From: a virus
Taxonomy: Duplodnaviria > Heunggongvirae > Uroviricota > Caudoviricetes
Reading direction: 5' to 3' (one strand)
IMG/VR virus record: IMGVR_UViG_2541047907_000002
Span: 1 to 47,077 of that record
Length of the DNA stretch: 47,077 nucleotides
The position numbers and the translations under genes were made by a program. Below, piece by piece: positions 1 through 21,102 of the stretch. Under the pieces are notes generated by a model, which worked only from the letters and a program-made list of their open reading frames with translations, had not been told where the DNA came from and did no database searches. Each line of letters starts with the position of its first letter. Position 1 is the first letter of the stretch.

Positions 1-1131
1 TCAAATGACCAGTTTTTTCCACTCCTTACCGCGTGCATCGTTGTAAATATCAGTCATTTTTTGATTCGAATGACCTAGCAAAATTTGGGTATCAATTCCC
101 TGCTCTCTGAACAATCGCTCCGATAAAGATCTCTGCTCATGGAAAGAGGGTGGGGTGCCATTAGCACGCCAGTTGTAATCCACAGAATCCCGCGCTTTTT
201 TAAATGCAACGGTTAACGTTGCTGGCTTAACCATCCCGCCGCGCTTAGCTGTCCCTTTCGCGTGATGATGGTGCAATAGCCACGGACTAAGAACGCAATC
301 GCGACAGGATGACACCACATCATCCAGGGTGAGATTTAATTTATCGCAACGCAGAACCAGAGGGATGGCAATCCGGGTTCCTGTTTTTTGCTGTTCGACA
401 TGAAGATAACCATCCCGGATATCCGAAAATTGCATTTTGCAAATATCTGAAAGGCGCTGGCCTGTCACCAGTGCCAGCAGCATGCCGCGCTGTAAAAAGT
501 AACCATCCTTTTCCGCTGCGTTATAAATCATCATCCACTCATCAAAAGTCAGTCGCTGTCTTGATATCCGCACCTGCGGTTTTTTTGCCGATTCTGCAGG
601 GTTAAAGCCTGGCGGGACATCGCCTGTTTGCTGAGCTTCCCGGAAAACATCGATCAGCACCTTCCTGAAAATTTGTCCCATTCTGTTATGTCCTCTGGCC
701 TTGTACTCTTCCAGCACCGATACCACATCTTTTACGGTTATGGCATCTAACGGTCTGGTGCCAAAACGTTCATCAAATACCCTGAGAGGGGCCGCTTTTT
801 GTTTCAGCGTGTTGAGTTTGATCTCTCCGTTTTCATATCTTTCCTGTTGAATTTTTCTGTAATTATTCAGAAAAATGGAAACAGTTGATGAACCGCCGGT
901 ATCATTAATAATTTTCTCCTGCAGACTGAGCATTTGTTCCATTTGCTGCCTGGCAAGACGGCTGTTCGCTTCTGCTGCAATAGTTTCTGCCAGTTTCTGG
1001 TCAATACTGCCGAGACCGTGATTTTTGCCTGTTATGGGATGCCTGTAACGCCAGTAAACTTTGTTATTTCTTTTGTCAAAATATGGAGATAATCCCGGAA
1101 CATCGGTTTTATATTTTCGCGGGCGCGCCAT
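1..1131 (-). CDS. int: Phage tyrosine integrase (site-specific recombinase)
   Basis: 376 aa ORF at the prophage edge; C-terminal LLGHSNQKMTDIYNDA segment fits the tyrosine recombinase catalytic region (H..Y); start overlaps the upstream small basic ORF, the usual xis-int arrangement. Confidence 0.85.
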   Translation of the reverse strand: MARPRKYKTDVPGLSPYFDKRNNKVYWRYRHPITGKNHGLGSIDQKLAETIAAEANSRLARQQMEQMLSLQEKIINDTGGSSTVSIFLNNYRKIQQERYENGEIKLNTLKQKAAPLRVFDERFGTRPLDAITVKDVVSVLEEYKARGHNRMGQIFRKVLIDVFREAQQTGDVPPGFNPAESAKKPQVRISRQRLTFDEWMMIYNAAEKDGYFLQRGMLLALVTGQRLSDICKMQFSDIRDGYLHVEQQKTGTRIAIPLVLRCDKLNLTLDDVVSSCRDCVLSPWLLHHHHAKGTAKRGGMVKPATLTVAFKKARDSVDYNWRANGTPPSFHEQRSLSERLFREQGIDTQILLGHSNQKMTDIYNDARGKEWKKLVI

Positions 1132-1357
1132 CTTCCAGTATCCTCTTCAAAGCAGGATGATCTGTGGCGATCACCTCCGGCTTGTTTACCATTCCGACAA
1201 AGCGAGCTCGCGGATCCACTCGCCAGTGTCTTCCAACTTTTTTGGGGAGAGGAAATATCATTCCGGCTTTAGCGTATTTACTTAACGTGCCCGGAGTAGG
1301 GACCGGATCGCTGAATTCCTCTTTTGCCCACTCAGTGAGCAGAATAAGTCTTGCCAT
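1109..1357 (-). CDS. xis: Excisionase-like small DNA-binding protein
   Basis: 82 aa basic protein immediately upstream of int with a 23 nt overlap; position and size typical of lambdoid Xis. Confidence 0.55.
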   Translation of the reverse strand: MARLILLTEWAKEEFSDPVPTPGTLSKYAKAGMIFPLPKKVGRHWRVDPRARFVGMVNKPEVIATDHPALKRILEDGAPAKI

Positions 1358-1421: not shown

Positions 1422-3893
1422 TTAAAAATCAGCCTGACTCGGGATCAGTTTTTGCCAGATAGCTGAAACGTATTTTGCTTGGTAACGAGCGTCATCAAGT
1501 GCATTATGGCGCTCACCTTCGAATGGGATAGCAGTTCTGGCATCGAAGTCTATGGCTTTCCCCAGCTCAACGATTGTGCGTACATCGCGATCGTTGTAGT
1601 AACGCCACGGGCAGGGGATCCCCTGCCGTTCGTATGAACGGCGTAAAATCGTGTTGTCGAAGTTGGCTCCATTTCCCCAGATCTGAACAAAAAACTCACC
1701 GGAGTTTTCGGCGATAAATTCCCGCAATTGCAGTAGTGCATCATCTAACGGGATTTCATCGGTCATAATGGCAGATTGCGCCTCGCGTGATTGCTTAAGC
1801 CACCATTTAATGGTGTCACGATCAATGACTCCGCCAGCAGTTTCCAGATCGATAGTCTTACTAAATTCCGGTCCCATATCTCCGGTTTGCGGATCGAAAA
1901 ATATTGCACCTATTGAGATAATCGGGGCATCAGGATTTTTTCCCATGGTTTCAAGGTCGATCATTAGATGGTCACACGTCCTGCTGGTGGATGTGATAAC
2001 GTGATGACCGTTCACCGTAATTAAGGGATCTGACGTCTCGCCAGTTTCACTATCGCTGACGTGGTCCTGAGCGCTGCCAGCATTCTCCTTGTGTGGATGT
2101 TCAGCGCCTTCCATTTTCTCCGAATCGTCTTCCTGAACTTCAACCTGGTTCTTGTCATCGAATGTTTCCTGGTATGTTGCGTCGCCCATCACCGCACCAC
2201 AATCAGGGCAGTTGCCGCCACCGCTCTGACCGCAGGCGGTGCAGATCTTTTCCGGTTCCTGTTGCACTACTGGTTCAGGTTGTTTCGTTTCTGGCTCGTT
2301 TTGTTGCGTATTTGGGCTGTTTTGTTCCGCTTTCTGGTCGTTCTGTTCCGTTTCTTGCTGGTTCTGGTTCACAGAATCGCGGGTTTCAATCCCCTTCACC
2401 CATTTCGGATCATTTGGATCGCTAATCCCTGCAACAAATTCACCACGTGATATTGCAAGCAGTTCATCGGCGTCAGGCTGGCTGATATTGGCTGCCTGCA
2501 TAATTTTGTTTACTTCGTCAGCGGTGACTTTTACCGGCCCTGGTTGTGCGGTCGTGTCAGATGCACCAGTATTTTGTTGTGAACCTGAGTATGTACCGTT
2601 TTTGCGGGCGAAATATTCTTCTTTCATGATTTCAGTAGCCCCGGCAGCCAGTGCCTTATCCAGACCAGAAAGTTTGTTTGCGCGACCGTATTTTTCGCCA
2701 TCCTTGTCGGTGAAGAGGAAGTAGAACGGCCCCTCACGCTCTACAGATGGTTCGACTTCCACTTTGCATTCGGTTTTTTCGTTGTCCGGAATTGCCGTTT
2801 CCACTGCATCAGTTTCTGGTACTGGCGACGAGAGAGTATCAGTTGCGCTCTGATTTCTTCCTTCATCTTCAAACACGCCCTTTGTAGTCAGGTATTCAGT
2901 AATGTATTTGTTCAGTGCCACAGGGTCTTTGTGAATGTCGATCGGACGTTCACGGACAAGGCCAAAAATAGTCTGGCGGTCGTAGCGAAGGGCATCAGGC
3001 TGTTTGCGCATTGATGCCGAGATACGCTTCCAGTCTTCGCGGTCGTTGTCGATAACTTCATTTTTTGCCCAGCGATGGATGCTGCCGTCAATGTTTCCGG
3101 CATCCACATCACCAGGCCAGAGAGCGTAGGCCAGTTCGTCATCCAGTGCTTTCCATGTCTGCTTGTATTCGCGATGAGTGGCAGCAATGACCGGGTTGAT
3201 TTTTCCTGTTGAACTTTCAGTGTGCTGTTGATTGGCTCTGGCGCGGGCGAGATCAACAACAGACGTGTATTTTCCGGTTTCCTTGCGTTCACCTTCGCGA
3301 CGTTTTTTCCAGATGCGCATCTCTGCCTGAATTTCGGGCCATTTGGCACCAGGCTTACATTTATGCTTAACCCACCCGATGGCATGCAGCTTAAGCTCCG
3401 GATACATGGCGTTAACTTCTGGCATTTTCATCAACGCTTCAACGATATGGCCGTCGAATGTTGCCATGTCTTCCTGCAACAATTCCTGTGCGCTAATCAC
3501 CATATCAACAGTGATGTTTTCACATGTGTCGAACTTAACCATGACAGCGTTCTGTACTTCAGGGGCCAGGTTGTCAAAAGTGACGTTCATCGGATCGGAT
3601 TCAGTCTCGACCGGAACAAAGGAAGCGGACGCCTCATCCCAGCGGTTTTCCTGCATATATTCAGCATCCCAGGAATCGAGGGCAGGGCGGGGTATACCGG
3701 GTTTATCCTCGCAGACAAGAAATTTATAAGCGCAGTCCTGAGCGGCCGGATATTGTTCCAGGAATTGCCAGTGAAATTTTGCGCGGGCGCGGCGTTCGTC
3801 GCCGGCTTCAATGGCAGTGGCTACAGCAACTGCACCTTCTTCCTTTATCGCCTGTTCGTCCGGAATGGCGGCGCAAATAAAGACTTTACTCAT
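1422..3893 (-). CDS. Large prophage exonuclease with C-terminal DEDDh (DnaQ-like) 3'-5' exonuclease domain and a central Cys4 zinc ribbon
   Basis: 823 aa; C-terminus carries MIDLETMG (Exo I D-x-E) and HNALDDARY (Exo III H-x4-D) motifs; central CTACG...CPDCG cluster; long acidic/Q-rich linker. Confidence 0.7.
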   Translation of the reverse strand: MSKVFICAAIPDEQAIKEEGAVAVATAIEAGDERRARAKFHWQFLEQYPAAQDCAYKFLVCEDKPGIPRPALDSWDAEYMQENRWDEASASFVPVETESDPMNVTFDNLAPEVQNAVMVKFDTCENITVDMVISAQELLQEDMATFDGHIVEALMKMPEVNAMYPELKLHAIGWVKHKCKPGAKWPEIQAEMRIWKKRREGERKETGKYTSVVDLARARANQQHTESSTGKINPVIAATHREYKQTWKALDDELAYALWPGDVDAGNIDGSIHRWAKNEVIDNDREDWKRISASMRKQPDALRYDRQTIFGLVRERPIDIHKDPVALNKYITEYLTTKGVFEDEGRNQSATDTLSSPVPETDAVETAIPDNEKTECKVEVEPSVEREGPFYFLFTDKDGEKYGRANKLSGLDKALAAGATEIMKEEYFARKNGTYSGSQQNTGASDTTAQPGPVKVTADEVNKIMQAANISQPDADELLAISRGEFVAGISDPNDPKWVKGIETRDSVNQNQQETEQNDQKAEQNSPNTQQNEPETKQPEPVVQQEPEKICTACGQSGGGNCPDCGAVMGDATYQETFDDKNQVEVQEDDSEKMEGAEHPHKENAGSAQDHVSDSETGETSDPLITVNGHHVITSTSRTCDHLMIDLETMGKNPDAPIISIGAIFFDPQTGDMGPEFSKTIDLETAGGVIDRDTIKWWLKQSREAQSAIMTDEIPLDDALLQLREFIAENSGEFFVQIWGNGANFDNTILRRSYERQGIPCPWRYYNDRDVRTIVELGKAIDFDARTAIPFEGERHNALDDARYQAKYVSAIWQKLIPSQADF

Positions 3894-3984: not shown

Positions 3985-4176
3985 TTAAAGACCTGCGGGG
4001 ATTTCTTTATTGTTCTGATGAATCACCTTATCAACCGGATAACAGTTACCGGGAATTTTTTGTTCTTCTGCGGCAGCCATGCATTCCTTCATTGAGTTGT
4101 ACATGCCGGTGATTACATCAAGCGACTCGCCAGTATTGATATATACAGTCAGAACGAGTGCGAATAATGTGTTCAC
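3985..4176 (-). CDS. Hypothetical small protein (63 aa)
   Basis: ORF in the leftward early operon between Rha-like gene and exonuclease; overlaps the next ORF by 4 nt. Confidence 0.35.
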   Translation of the reverse strand: MNTLFALVLTVYINTGESLDVITGMYNSMKECMAAAEEQKIPGNCYPVDKVIHQNNKEIPAGL

Positions 4177-4361
4177 AGGTTCTCTCCGAAAATACCGAGT
4201 TCAAGAAGAGCAATTCTGGAAAGTATGGAATTATCATTGAGAAGATAAGGCTCATATTTTCTCATCTTAATGGCATCTTCAGTAAACTCCCGGTTACTGA
4301 GCAGAACACCAATATTAAAACATCCTTCAGACGTATTAACGTTCGGTAATAACGTTTCCAT
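4173..4361 (-). CDS. Hypothetical small protein (62 aa)
   Basis: ORF tightly packed downstream of the Rha-like gene on the minus strand. Confidence 0.35.
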   Translation of the reverse strand: METLLPNVNTSEGCFNIGVLLSNREFTEDAIKMRKYEPYLLNDNSILSRIALLELGIFGENL

Positions 4362-4371
4362 TATCGCGTCC

Positions 4372-4929
4372 TCAACAATGAATTTTTAGTAATTGCTCCA
4401 CAGTCATATTTTTAATTGCACTCCGGTTTACAAGAGTCCAGCCTTGTTTCTCCAGATAAAACTGGAAGGTATCCAGGGTGCAGACCATTGCGCCGTCAGG
4501 AACGGTTTCAGTGAATTTGATATTGCCGTGTTCGTCGAGACGGATAACCAGGGTGCGTCCGTCCCCGTGAATCATTTTGTCGGGAGACGGGGCGTTATTC
4601 TGGCGCAGTTCTTCCTCCATGCGATCGAACTCAGCAATGTAGGCTTCCTTGAATGCAGCTGCTTTTTTGCCGGTGAAGCCCATCACCAGGAAAACGAAGC
4701 CGTTTTTGGTGATTTGGTACATTGGGCGTTTTTTGCCTTGCTCATCAATATATTCGGCGGGCGCAAAATTGCGCTCGCTAAATTTCTGTGAGCATTCCAA
4801 GTTGTCGATTTTTTTCAGAACATCTTTATGCATTTTGCGGAAGAATTCCGCGATGGCGACAGACGTGGTGACGGCACGACCATTTTCTACGGTTACACAA
4901 GGGTGAGAAAGGGTAGGGATAGTAGCCAT
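4372..4929 (-). CDS. Rha-family phage regulatory protein
   Basis: Segment TTSVAIAEFFRKMHKDVLKKIDNL...SERNF...QGKKRPMYQITKNGFVFLVMGFTGKKAAAFKEAYIAEF matches the Phage_pRha pattern as recalled; start placed at internal ATG 4927-4929 preceded by AGAGG; the ORF is open up to 5226, so the true start is uncertain. Confidence 0.65.
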   Translation of the reverse strand: MATIPTLSHPCVTVENGRAVTTSVAIAEFFRKMHKDVLKKIDNLECSQKFSERNFAPAEYIDEQGKKRPMYQITKNGFVFLVMGFTGKKAAAFKEAYIAEFDRMEEELRQNNAPSPDKMIHGDGRTLVIRLDEHGNIKFTETVPDGAMVCTLDTFQFYLEKQGWTLVNRSAIKNMTVEQLLKIHC

Positions 4930-5412
4930 GATGGCAGCCTCTAGTGATAAGTTAGTTAACTCACCACCATGGCTTTCCACGACCATAAAGGTGGTGAGAC
5001 GTACAGGGGTGGAAATACCGGTCACTAGAGAACCCGGCCAGCCTTTCGGCTGCCCTGCACGCCCCACCATAATGCGAATGAGGCTGTGCTTAGCGCATAA
5101 AAAAACCGCTTTGGCGCGGTTATGCGCTCTAGTGAACATCGGGTTTCCACGCCCGGCACCCGTTTTATAAGGTGCAGGTGCACTATAATTCCACCCGTTC
5201 TGGTTTTCAATAGCTACATTCAACATTTTCTCTACCTTTCATCACCGAAGTGAACTTTGTTGATGCGGTGCCTGGTGCCTCCAGGTGACGTTAACCAGTT
5301 AACAATTAACGCCGGAATACAGAAGGATTCCCGTTACGCCAGTAAAAGGCCCCATCACTGTTTTAACTGTTCCGCGTGCGCATAGCCGCATTCACCGCAT
5401 CACAAAATTCAC

Positions 5413-5792: not shown

Positions 5793-6281
5793 ATGGCTGC
5801 GATAAAGGAGACAGCTGGTCTCGCAAAGGTTATTAATGACGCAAAAACGGATGCAGAAGTTAAAGCCGCAACTATTGAACTTCAGAACAAACTAATCACG
5901 CTTCAGGCGGAGTGCTTCTCTCTTGGTGATGCGATCCGTCTTCGTAACGAAGAGATAATGCTTCTCAAAGCAAAAATTGCAGAATTCGAAAACTTTCAGA
6001 TTCAGACTGAAGGTTATGTTCTTAACCAACTCGAATCGGGTGCTTTTGTATACTCGAAGGAGGAAACGGTGAATGGAGGCACTGTTACTATGCATCTTTG
6101 TCCAAAATGTTTTGGACAAAAGACAGTATCTATACTCCAGCCATTCCCGGTTAGCGAAGATGCGCCTTTTCATGAAAGTAAGTGTCTCCACTGTGAAAAC
6201 AAGTTTCTGATGAACAAAAATCCGGATTACATACCGCTGTCTTTTGATGAGATAGCGAGAACACTGGGCAGTAATCCGTAG
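5793..6281 (+). CDS. Hypothetical protein, coiled-coil N-terminus and C-terminal Cys4 zinc ribbon
   Basis: CPKC...CLHC pairs near the C-terminus; start set at ATG 5793; alternative starts at GTG 5769 or ATG 5526 cannot be excluded. Confidence 0.45.
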   Translation: MAAIKETAGLAKVINDAKTDAEVKAATIELQNKLITLQAECFSLGDAIRLRNEEIMLLKAKIAEFENFQIQTEGYVLNQLESGAFVYSKEETVNGGTVTMHLCPKCFGQKTVSILQPFPVSEDAPFHESKCLHCENKFLMNKNPDYIPLSFDEIARTLGSNP

Positions 6282-6408
6282 GTTATTGCTGTTGTGGATA
6301 TCCAGATTGTTAAAGAACATGCCGGATGCTTATCCGTGTCCGGCGCACGACCACACGTAGCAGCGTGTTGGTCTCCATTTTCAACCCAGAACCTCAATGG
6401 AGGATAAA

Positions 6409-6594
6409 ATGTCAGACAAGTTAATTAACCCATTTACCTATCCATCTGTTGCAGCTTTGAACTTAACAGTTGAGTTAATTCGGGCTGGCAAAATGTCATC
6501 CCCTTCAGAGGCGGCCAATTCAGTTATTACAATTCACAATATATTGAAAGAAGAAAAACAAGCCGCTATGGAGAAGACTGATAAAGAGCAATAA
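6409..6594 (+). CDS. Hypothetical small protein (61 aa)
   Basis: ATG at 6409 preceded by GGAGG with good spacing. Confidence 0.4.
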   Translation: MSDKLINPFTYPSVAALNLTVELIRAGKMSSPSEAANSVITIHNILKEEKQAAMEKTDKEQ

Positions 6595-6724
6595 AGGCTT
6601 CTCTGATTTCTTGAGCCAGTTTTTTAGCTGGCTCTACCTTTTCTGTCCCACCGTCCAAAATGAGAGATTTCAGTGTTTCTGCGGCGATTTTCTGAGTGTC
6701 TGGAGGTAAATCTTTAAATTCCAT
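6566..6724 (-). CDS. Hypothetical small protein (52 aa), not in the supplied ORF track
   Basis: Hand-translated minus-strand ORF MEFKDLPPDTQKIAAETLKSLILDGGTEKVEPAKKLAQEIREAFIALYQSSP; GAGG 7 nt upstream of the ATG; 11 nt downstream of the preceding minus-strand gene; 3' end overlaps the convergent ORF 6409-6594 by 29 nt. Confidence 0.3.
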   Translation of the reverse strand: MEFKDLPPDTQKIAAETLKSLILDGGTEKVEPAKKLAQEIREAFIALYQSSP

Positions 6725-6735
6725 CGTCAACCTCA

Positions 6736-6972
6736 TCAGTCAGTTTTTCTGGCTAACCAGCGACGCGCGCCAGTTTCGGTTTTAAACGTTTTGCTTTTGG
6801 TATACGTCATCGCGGTGAACGTGCCGTCCTGGTTTGGGAACACGCCGTACACCAGAGACTCGTTGTTGCCAGGAACGATAGTATCCATGCTGACCTCATT
6901 TCCCCTTAACGCCGGGGTAGCGGAACAAAAACCTGCTGCATAGTTAAAGTTGAACCCTGCCGTCATGTTCAT
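6736..6972 (-). CDS. Hypothetical protein (78 aa), first gene of the leftward early operon
   Basis: GAGG upstream of the start; sits directly downstream of the putative P_L-like promoter. Confidence 0.45.
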   Translation of the reverse strand: MNMTAGFNFNYAAGFCSATPALRGNEVSMDTIVPGNNESLVYGVFPNQDGTFTAMTYTKSKTFKTETGARRWLARKTD

Positions 6973-7039
6973 ACGCCTCGGGCTGGCTACTTACCCCCTG
7001 ACCACTGCCTGGTAACTCGAAGTATTGCCCTGCGTTCTG

Positions 7040-7937: not shown

Positions 7938-8359
7938 AAATCAAGCATGAACACATCCGCATGGCGATGAATGCCTGGGCACATCCGGATGGCGAAAAAG
8001 TTCCGGCAGCTGAAATAACCCGGGCTTATTTTGAGTTGGGGCTGACGTTTCCTGAACTGTACGACGACAGCCATCCGGAAGCCCTGGCTCGCAATACCCA
8101 GAAAATTTTCCGCTGGGTGAAGAAAGACACCCCTGATGCTGTTGAAAAAATTCAGGCGTTGTTACCGGCGATCGAAAGGGCAATGCCACCTCCGCTCGTG
8201 GCCTGGATGCGCAGCCACAGTTCGGAATATCACCGGGAGCTTGTCGAGCGACGGGATCGGCTGATGAAAGATATAGATGAGCTCGTTGCATCAGCGATCG
8301 TTCTGTTCGATCAGATGAATCGTGGTGGTCCGGTGGGAAATATTGTGGTTGTGCATTGA
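7934..8359 (+). CDS. YdaT-like prophage protein (toxin-like family)
   Basis: 141 aa beginning MKIKHEHIRMAMNAWAHPDGEKVPAAEITRAYFELG, which matches the Rac-prophage YdaT family as recalled; start overlaps the cro-like stop by 4 nt. Confidence 0.55.
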   Translation: MKIKHEHIRMAMNAWAHPDGEKVPAAEITRAYFELGLTFPELYDDSHPEALARNTQKIFRWVKKDTPDAVEKIQALLPAIERAMPPPLVAWMRSHSSEYHRELVERRDRLMKDIDELVASAIVLFDQMNRGGPVGNIVVVH

Positions 8360-20792: not shown

Positions 20793-20868
20793 GGCCCTTT
20801 AGCTCAGTGGTGAGAGCGAGCGACTCATAATCGCCAGGTCGCTGGTTCAAATCCAGCAAGGGCCACCA
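20793..20868 (+). tRNA. tRNA with CAU anticodon, ileX-like (Ile2/lysidine type)
   Basis: Hand-folded cloverleaf: acceptor GGCCCTT/AAGGGCC, D-stem GCTC/GAGC, anticodon loop CTCATAA, T-loop TTCAAAT, 3' CCA; very similar to E. coli ileX as recalled. Confidence 0.8.
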
Positions 20869-20869
20869 A

Positions 20870-20946
20870 CCGCCACTAGCTCATCAGGAAAGAGCATCAA
20901 CCTTCTAAGTTGACGGCGCGAGGTTCGAGTCCTCGGTGGTGGGCCA
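20870..20946 (+). tRNA. tRNA-Arg (UCU anticodon)
   Basis: Hand-folded: acceptor CCGCCAC/GTGGTGG (one G-U pair), anticodon loop CTTCTAA, T-arm CGAGG-TTCGAGT-CCTCG, 3' CCA; unusual C1 start. Confidence 0.6.
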
Positions 20947-20948
20947 GT

Positions 20949-21024
<76 letters not shown>

Positions 21025-21027
21025 TAT

Positions 21028-21102
<75 letters not shown>

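Follow-up and report, generated by a model that had tools for sequence, protein, structure and literature searches.

A YdfE/RecE-type scaffold joined to a DEDDh exonuclease domain in an intact lambdoid prophage gene

RecE of the K-12 Rac prophage (866 amino acids, aa) is composed of a long non-catalytic N-terminal part and a C-terminal nuclease, and its gene is situated between kil/dicB and xis-int. In a recent review (PMC11611040) the function of the non-catalytic part is still described as unknown. The present analysis deals with an exonuclease gene at 1422..3893 on the minus strand of the IMG/VR virus record IMGVR_UViG_2541047907_000002 (Caudoviricetes); the whole stretch analyzed, positions 1 to 47,077 of that record (47,077 nt), is called the window. 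The encoded 823-aa protein shows the same layout of a long N-terminal part and a C-terminal nuclease, its gene holds the same operon position, and sister genes exist which join the N-terminus of the window type to the RecE nuclease. The two systems also differ. The RecE nuclease is a PD-(D/E)XK enzyme with 5'-3' polarity (PF12684-type, RecE 606-866), whereas the window protein carries a DEDDh domain of predicted 3'-5' polarity and gave no PF12684 match. recE is followed by recT, whereas the window gene leads directly to xis. The N-terminus of Rac RecE is PF06630 (Exonuc_VIII), whereas aa 1-256 of the window protein are YdfE-type. ydfE of the K-12 Qin prophage lies in the same dicB-ydfD-ydfE neighbourhood but is a remnant cut by IS2, while the 823-aa window gene is intact.

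On the nuclease side, DexA of phage T4 (8kel/8ken) has all five DEDDh catalytic residues in common with the window protein, but it comes from a virulent phage as a standalone protein of 227 aa, which has extra loops and lacks a RecE-type scaffold. EcD ('HREX'), a plasmid-borne DexA homologue of E. coli, belongs to the same Pfam family and is a reported 3'-5' DNA exonuclease which protects against T4 and digests 5-hydroxymethylcytosine (5hmC) DNA (PMC12153337, 2025). It is a short standalone protein, and the signature residues put forward for 5hmC specificity and a dimer-only state are not reproduced in the window protein. Rv2179c of M. tuberculosis, which was compared via the Pfam model only, shares PF16473 but is a standalone cellular exoribonuclease. 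Phage Tritos possesses a 92% identical gene in the same place. According to PMC12315714 (Genome Res 2025), DnaQ-like 3'-5' nucleases occur in lambdoid recombination modules, and a 'Tritos' class of these possesses a nuclease, no annealase, single-stranded DNA-binding protein (SSB) or anti-RecBCD function, and 7-21 top-strand Chi sites; the fusion of a RecE scaffold with a DEDDh domain and its junction are not described in the available text. The literature on YdfE, on Rv2179c in connection with prophages and on a RecE zinc ribbon yielded nothing functional. On balance, the window gene as a whole is probably best explained as a mosaic of a YdfE/RecE scaffold, a linker and a DEDDh head, which would carry out 3'-5' end trimming in a cis-positioned manner together with host RecBCD and RecA.

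The DEDDh head and its substrate

The gene and its nuclease domain are placed in the window as follows.

1422..3893, minus strand: whole gene, 823-aa RecE/YdfE-scaffold DEDDh exonuclease (intact form of K-12 ydfE); single open reading frame (ORF), PHROG 2082, purifying selection
1455..1970, minus strand: DEDDh (DnaQ-like, DexA/Rv2179c-type) 3'-5' exonuclease domain, aa 642-813; PF16473 and DexA match

The ORF listing of the window gave one unbroken frame with an ATG start, and GAGG is found 9 nt upstream of the start codon. PF16473 (Rv2179c-like) matched aa 642-813 over positions 2-177 of the 177 in the model (E 2e-67, 226.6 bits against a cut-off of 27), and the exonuclease domain occupies only the last ~190 aa. 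An earlier note made from the sequence alone had described a single long ORF with a C-terminal DEDDh exonuclease, and this description was confirmed. Residues D646 and E648 (Exo I), D746 (Exo II) and H796 and D801 (Exo III, His-x4-Asp) align with D7, E9, D119, H186 and D191 of DexA. In an alignment of 11 sequences the columns of D646, E648, H796 and D801 are invariant, while the Exo II column has Asp in 10 of the 11 and Asn in P0154. DexA was the sole match among PDB sequences (8kel, E 1.6e-6, 29% identity) and also the best fold match (Foldseek E 1e-9, TM 0.66-0.73), followed by RNase T and Orn/REXO2, all at a probability of 1.00. The domain, which has a DnaQ/RNase H-like fold, is predicted with confidence in the full-length AlphaFold2 (AF2) model, where the predicted local distance difference test score (pLDDT) is ~90 over aa 640-820. 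The DEDDh head probably degrades DNA ends in the 3'-to-5' direction.

A domain of this kind might instead trim or degrade RNA 3' ends (of host or phage transcripts, small RNAs or short oligoribonucleotides) in the manner of Rv2179c, RNase T and oligoribonuclease. PF16473 takes its name from Rv2179c, an exoribonuclease of M. tuberculosis, RNase T and Orn/REXO2 are the next fold matches after DexA, and the NCBI product names of family proteins include '3'-5' exoribonuclease'. However, among characterised proteins the DNA exonuclease DexA is nearest in sequence as well as in fold, the sister genes with identical scaffold and linker bear bona fide RecE double-stranded DNA exonuclease domains, and the gene occupies the position of a lambdoid recombination nuclease, so that an exoribonuclease is considered unlikely.

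Likeness to DexA and EcD also raises a role in anti-phage defence or superinfection exclusion, in which an EcD-like DEDDh domain would digest the incoming hydroxymethylcytosine DNA of T-even phages and the scaffold would be incidental or regulatory. T4 DexA as the closest solved structure, the protection against T4 and cleavage of 5hmC DNA by EcD (PMC12153337), and the prophage-borne and extremely widespread nature of the gene would agree with such a role. But EcD is a different, standalone protein, as its primers encode MIDTET... and ...TIPETY. In a MAFFT alignment the DexA residues W152 and D169, which are reported to read 5hmC, correspond to Y766 and A780, the second of them with uncertainty since the D169 region is poorly aligned, and the tetramer residue D90 of DexA, which is Ala in EcD, is retained as D718. 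PADLOC returned only a generic CRISPR-associated DEDDh match (E 2e-5). The gene also sits at the distal end of the leftward early operon, and the DNA just ahead of it shows no promoter-like site, so that it would be expected to stay silent in a repressed lysogen. A defence function is thus held to be improbable. Two related assignments were rejected: that EcD is the window protein or a fragment of it, as the termini rebuilt from the cloning primers differ, and the filing of the gene under HREX, as neither the proposed 5hmC-reading residues nor the loss of D90 are matched. Consensus scans for a promoter or terminator of the exonuclease gene's own remained at chance level.

The N-terminal scaffold and the linker

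Ahead of the nuclease domain, the following features were distinguished.

3279..3893, minus strand: domain 1, aa 1-205, predicted alpha/beta, YdfE_N/YdfE_C region; AF2 pLDDT 84-98
2874..3173, minus strand: domain 2, aa 241-340, predicted helical, opens the part shared with canonical RecE; pLDDT 91-98 in both models
2598..2732, minus strand: domain 3, aa 388-432, predicted small beta-hairpin and helix; pLDDT 92-96 in the N-terminal model
2400..2447, minus strand: most widely conserved family motif RGEFVAGISDPNDPKW, aa 483-498; invariant in the query, the PD-(D/E)XK variants and RecE
2250..2393, minus strand: Q/N/E-rich low-complexity stretch GIETRDSVNQNQQETEQNDQKAEQNSPNTQQNEPETKQPEPVVQQEPE, aa 501-548, predicted disordered; entropy, pLDDT ~30
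2199..2243, minus strand: predicted zinc ribbon/knuckle CTACGQSGGGNCPDC, aa 551-565; C551-x2-C554-x7-C562-x2-C565
2016..2198, minus strand: acidic linker, predicted disordered, aa 566-626, ending in ...ETGETSDPLIT; charge, pLDDT 27-38, substitution ratios

The first 256 aa are 95% identical to the translated ydfE pseudogene of K-12 Qin. The Pfam families PF27430 (YdfE_N) and PF27432 (YdfE_C) are precomputed on homologues of 90-96% identity. Residues 262-626 align with K-12 RecE 278-592 at 38% identity, zinc ribbon included, and within this region aa 474-626 are 70% identical to residues 471-616 of Rac-SA53 RecE. The NCBIfam RecE equivalog (PRK09709/NF007259) aligned aa 239-626 with model positions 262-603 at 273.7 bits against a cut-off of 1269. 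The RGEFVxGISDPNDPKW motif, the Q/N/E-rich stretch, the zinc ribbon and the acidic tail ...ETGExxDP are common to the query and RecE, and as judged from these alignments both the zinc ribbon and the low-complexity linker belong to canonical RecE, in its non-catalytic part. To the question left by the earlier note, whether the N-terminal region is a known RecE-type domain, the answer is largely yes, with aa 262-626 homologous to RecE and aa 1-256 of the YdfE type.

An AF2 model of aa 1-470, built on a 50-sequence alignment (mean pLDDT 83.8), predicted three confident domains parted by low-confidence linkers. Domain 3 had lower confidence in the full-length AF2 model and falls in a gap of the K-12 RecE alignment, being absent from that protein. 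The full-length model is worse than the N-terminal one at aa 30-150, probably due to its alignment, and was used for the linker and DEDDh domain only. The 470-aa model had no Foldseek match at E <= 0.001 in the PDB or BFVD, the 50-sequence profile of the region had none among PDB sequences at E <= 1, and the profile search of the query gave no Pfam match in the N-terminal region. Matches of the model to PurS and ribosomal proteins were weak and were rejected as noise. Three uncharacterised phage proteins of 56-71 aa in BFVD (A0A6J5NN65, A0A345MIY6 and A0A516M5N7) superpose on a sub-domain of ~65 residues with probability 0.97-1.00 and target TM 0.72-0.82, but at E >0.1.

Over ~45 diverse homologues the conserved N-terminal columns are mainly P, G, A, W, L, I and M, with few E and R. 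Since the conserved positions are mostly hydrophobic, proline or glycine, the region is read as a scaffold or interaction module, and the pattern suggests a structural or interaction part rather than an enzyme; an interaction or scaffold role is rated as possible. The earlier note had proposed that this region may carry a second activity or an interaction module. A separate module it is, with three confidently predicted domains, acidic and apparently non-catalytic, and it recombines as a unit with different C-terminal nucleases; for a second activity no match was found. An enzyme hidden in the N-terminal ~625 aa could be imagined from the three well-folded domains under strong purifying selection (see below for aa 1-240) and from a fold unrepresented in the PDB and BFVD, which could belong to some unrecognised enzyme. 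But no family, profile or fold match was obtained, E and R are scattered among the mostly P, G, A, W, L, I and M conserved positions, and the N-terminus of canonical RecE is dispensable for nuclease and basic recombination activity according to PMC11611040. A second enzymatic activity is therefore rated as very improbable.

The RGEFVAGISDPNDPKW motif of the linker is kept in 119 of 120 close homologues and in 17 of 41 distant long homologues and has pLDDT 52-61 in the full-length model. In the stretch at aa 501-548, rich in Q, N, E and P, the entropy of 40-aa windows falls to its minimum for the protein (2.87 bits, the mean being 3.74 +/- 0.16), and the CTACG...CPDCG motif was found after it with its four cysteines C551, C554, C562 and C565; both had been pointed out in the earlier note and both stand. 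All four cysteines are present in 118 of the 120 close homologues, with variation in the spacer residues (13 variants), and in only 4 of the 41 distant family members; many long members of the scaffold family are without the zinc ribbon. Its counterpart in K-12 RecE is CNACGQTGGDNCPDC. The match to Pfam DZR (E 0.11) was below the cut-off, and AF2 predicted short strands at pLDDT 41-59; metal binding is thus a prediction. The linker carries a net charge of -14 over aa 571-636 and pLDDT is ~30 over aa 567-636. In the model, the zinc knuckle appears to stand mid-way in a disordered, strongly acidic linker.

Exchange of heads, prevalence and decayed copies

The segment of aa 1-627 was searched against 5.8 billion proteins. 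The N-terminus, at 90-97% identity, was found to occur with three C-terminal forms.

823-830 aa: head PF16473 (DEDDh), as in the window
900 aa: head PF12684 (PD-(D/E)XK), of the K-12 RecE nuclease type
1057 aa: longer PD-(D/E)XK head, of the Rac-SA53 type

The position where these forms part was located in the DNA.

2020..2026, no strand assigned: mosaic junction, where homology to RecE-type genes (PD-(D/E)XK with recT) stops, aa 623-625; blastn

In blastn, identity was 96% to both PD-(D/E)XK variants (L003 and L004) and 76% to K-12 recE, and all of these alignments end at nt 2020-2026; the protein alignment with the PD-(D/E)XK variants agrees with the DNA breakpoint. The DEDDh gene of phage 689R5 has an unrelated N-terminal half and is homologous only from nt 2534 (aa 454). 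Because homology is limited at nt 2020-2026 on one side and at nt 2534 on the other, the linker DNA of nt ~2020-2534 is read as a shared joint for the exchange of scaffolds and heads. The heads exchanged there have opposite polarity. The PD-(D/E)XK variants have recT as the next gene downstream, while in the DEDDh variants (window, mEp460, Tritos, Evi, PPompW and 689R5) xis or an unnamed small ORF comes directly next, then int where it is retained. The DEDDh head thus stands in for both the PD-(D/E)XK 5'-3' nuclease of RecE and the recT gene which follows it.

The scaffold is joined to other modules as well. YdfE-type N-termini were found together with PHROG 7838 ('exonuclease') or PHROG 26058 (function unknown) modules which are not recognised by Pfam, and one long member of the family contains a RecT domain within the same polypeptide (proteins P0245, P0249, P0253, P0258, P0284 and P0301 and one member of alignment A3). 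From these sequences, the scaffold appears to accept at least four or five different heads. When aa 1-626 were compared with 1.84 billion cluster representatives, only 246 clusters matched, and the scaffold family is therefore a narrow one.

The gene of the window is an intact member of a very common and catalogued E. coli prophage family. It matched PHROG 2082 'exonuclease' with 1857.8 bits (query 1-823 over profile positions 1-823 of 823), and megablast detected phage copies at 91-96% identity in mEp460, Tritos, HannyBb, PhiR42_1, Evi and the PPompW prophages. Annotated genes of phages and E. coli genomes reach 96-98% identity. Among 5426 complete E. coli genomes the gene was detected in 4788, with at least 80% gene coverage in 3532 of those, and the genome copies are annotated as 'exonuclease' or '3'-5' exonuclease'. 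The length norm of the family is 823-830 aa. The word 'unusually long' in the earlier note was therefore not borne out, this being the ordinary length of a protein with near-full-length genes in 3532 of the 5426 genomes. The DEDDh-coding part alone was found in 4070 of the 5426 genomes at 8105 places, and the K-12-type RecE nuclease part in 1736. The number of E. coli genomes with the DEDDh-headed form, which lacks a RecT partner, is thus more than double that with the recombineering RecE nuclease module.

Decayed copies are also frequent in the family. The K-12 Qin pseudogene ydfE (6079-6999 of locus L010) corresponds to the first 256 codons of a gene of the window type, 95% identical and truncated by IS2. 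The analysis thereby reveals the original form of this pseudogene, and since IS2 has left only this remnant in K-12, YdfE_N and YdfE_C are Pfam families named for a fragment of a far larger nuclease. At L008 3001-5468 (PPompW prophages / Stx2a phages), the copies in the PPompW prophages are annotated as frameshifted by a 4-bp deletion. The copy at 737-3127 of L015 has two frameshifts, which place aa 1-453 and aa 627-823 in frame 2 but aa 462-590 in frame 1. As a result of the L015 frameshifts, gene callers report a 'standalone' DEDDh protein of 183 aa (cluster P0190, 277 members), and at least some of the 'standalone' E. coli DEDDh entries are fragments of decayed long genes. Genuine standalone homologues were seen in Salmonella (P0226), beside a DndB-like gene and also just upstream of xis-int.

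Selection on the window gene was estimated as the ratio of nonsynonymous to synonymous substitution rates (dN/dS) from codon alignments with five relatives (mEp460, Tritos, Evi and two PD-(D/E)XK variants). The ratio was below 1 in all segments, junction included: 0.08-0.12 for aa 1-240, 0.20-0.65 for aa 241-470, 0.12-0.33 for the Q/N/E-rich stretch and 0.10-0.19 for the DEDDh domain. The codons of the zinc ribbon were nearly invariant, while the acidic linker (aa 566-626) showed the weakest constraint in the protein (0.48-0.79). Met644, where shorter database proteins start, is not preceded by a Shine-Dalgarno-like sequence. An internal start which yields a free DEDDh domain was rejected on this basis and because the 183-aa 'standalone' E. 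coli proteins checked (P0190/L015) come from a frameshifted long gene.

These data bear on the suspicion that two neighbouring genes were fused in the reading, a case which the earlier note had also kept in view, or that the gene is a functionless, decaying pseudogene. Some relatives are indeed broken by frameshifts, with a DEDDh protein of 183 aa called as a gene of its own (L015, P0190), and the K-12 and PPompW copies are pseudogenes. But the window copy is one uninterrupted ORF, near-full-length copies are present in 3532 genomes, dN/dS is below 1 everywhere including the junction, and Met644 lacks a Shine-Dalgarno sequence. Such an artefact deserves hardly any credence, and it is already contradicted in the window.

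Prophage context and proposed role

The window shows the order int, xis, exonuclease gene, two small genes in the ydfD/dicB place, antirepressor-like gene, repressor, cro and cII-like gene, and after the latter replication genes, a Q-like antiterminator and late genes. It is a lambdoid prophage with the exonuclease gene in its early-left operon. The neighbouring features and the Chi sites are placed as follows.

1..1131, minus strand: integrase, runs to the window edge; ORF list, synteny with annotated intE/integrase
1109..1357, minus strand: excisionase, directly downstream of the exonuclease gene; PHROG 629, E 3e-34
3985..4361, minus strand: two small genes (63 and 62 aa) in the ydfD/dicB position of Qin and Tritos; PHROG 1092 and 1251
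1394, 1983, 12691, 13925, 16056, 16372, 22832, 24220, plus strand: Chi sites
12486, 14510, 17187, 22576, minus strand: Chi sites

The order exonuclease gene-xis-int is also present in mEp460, Tritos and PPompW, and the dicB-ydfD-exonuclease gene synteny in K-12 Qin, Tritos and 689R5. Between the exonuclease gene and xis there is neither recT nor a gene for another annealase. PHROG scans of the 20 ORFs between int and Q detected no annealase, SSB or Gam-like family, with small ORFs of unknown function remaining among them. The window contains 12 copies of Chi (GCTGGTGG), 8 on the plus and 4 on the minus strand, where 1.9 would be expected; in 100 shuffles the number always stayed below 12. Two Chi sites flank or enter the exonuclease gene, and the one at 1983-1990 is ~30 nt from the junction at nt 2020. 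This enrichment fits the Chi-rich, Gam-less class of lambdoid phages in PMC12315714, and the protein is most likely the sole recombination-module nuclease of a 'Tritos-type' lambdoid prophage.

In the mosaic reading favoured here, the DEDDh head would strip nucleotides 3'-to-5' from DNA ends, with two metal ions held by D646, E648, D746 and D801 and with H796 as the general base. The N-terminal scaffold and flexible linker would be non-cutting and would tether or position the nuclease in cis. Cis-positioning by the scaffold is proposed because full-length RecE requires its N-terminus for end-to-end recombination, and does so in cis, in a 2012 study as related in PMC11611040. As no annealase and no anti-RecBCD gene was found and Chi is enriched, the enzyme probably pairs with host RecBCD and RecA and not in a RecET-like way. 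It could, as a speculation, trim 3' tails and so turn DNA ends into entry sites for RecBCD. This idea of blunting 3' tails rests on general knowledge of the end preference of RecBCD. The linker DNA of nt ~2020-2534 would serve as a homologous joint for the shuffling of scaffolds and nucleases between phages.

Several points weigh against this reading. DnaQ-type 3'-5' exonucleases usually inhibit rather than promote recombination, according to PMC12315714, and the link with RecBCD and Chi is a correlation among phage classes and not evidence on the exonuclease gene itself. The biochemical role is one which we infer, for the window protein and its full-length relatives alike. The substrate could be RNA, as the naming of PF16473 for an exoribonuclease and the NCBI name '3'-5' exoribonuclease' would have it. 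The whole protein is strongly acidic, with a net charge of -58, and has no obvious DNA-binding surface beyond the nuclease. The zinc ribbon would not be essential to the core role of the scaffold, since it is missing from most distant members. Finally, the gene is dispensable to lysogens, since it is often inactivated, as in K-12 ydfE, PPompW and L015.

A wider proposal takes the YdfE/RecE N-terminus and linker as a nuclease-agnostic platform which docks on a DNA-end structure of host or phage and carries swappable heads of opposite polarity, with the DEDDh form as an annealase-free strategy which blunts 3' tails for RecBCD and Chi. This proposal is doubtful and is offered tentatively.

Other elements were seen outside the recombination region. 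Rfam identified a C4 antisense RNA at 4987-5074 (minus strand, 80 bits) and the Hfq-binding small RNA IsrK at 5099-5175 (minus strand, 65 bits), both inside the 5' part of the Rha/antirepressor-like ORF at 4372-5226. This placement suggests a P1-type c4/ant immunity module, and also that the antirepressor really begins downstream of the start given in the ORF list. Four clustered tRNA genes (Met-CAT, Arg-TCT, Thr-TGT and Gly-TCC) were seen at 20793-21102 on the plus strand, in the late-regulatory/lysis region.

The gene itself is a catalogued one (PHROG 2082; YdfE_N/YdfE_C and Rv2179c-like) which is present in most E. coli genomes, and its module class is already described; the finding is in this sense ordinary. 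The question of what the shared scaffold and the DEDDh form do is a real one, though not newly raised by the window. If the platform proposal is true, the DEDDh form would be the main 'RecE-like' activity of E. coli prophages (4070 against 1736 genomes) and RecET the minority. The biochemistry of a protein of the window type would also illuminate the unexplained N-terminal two thirds of RecE.

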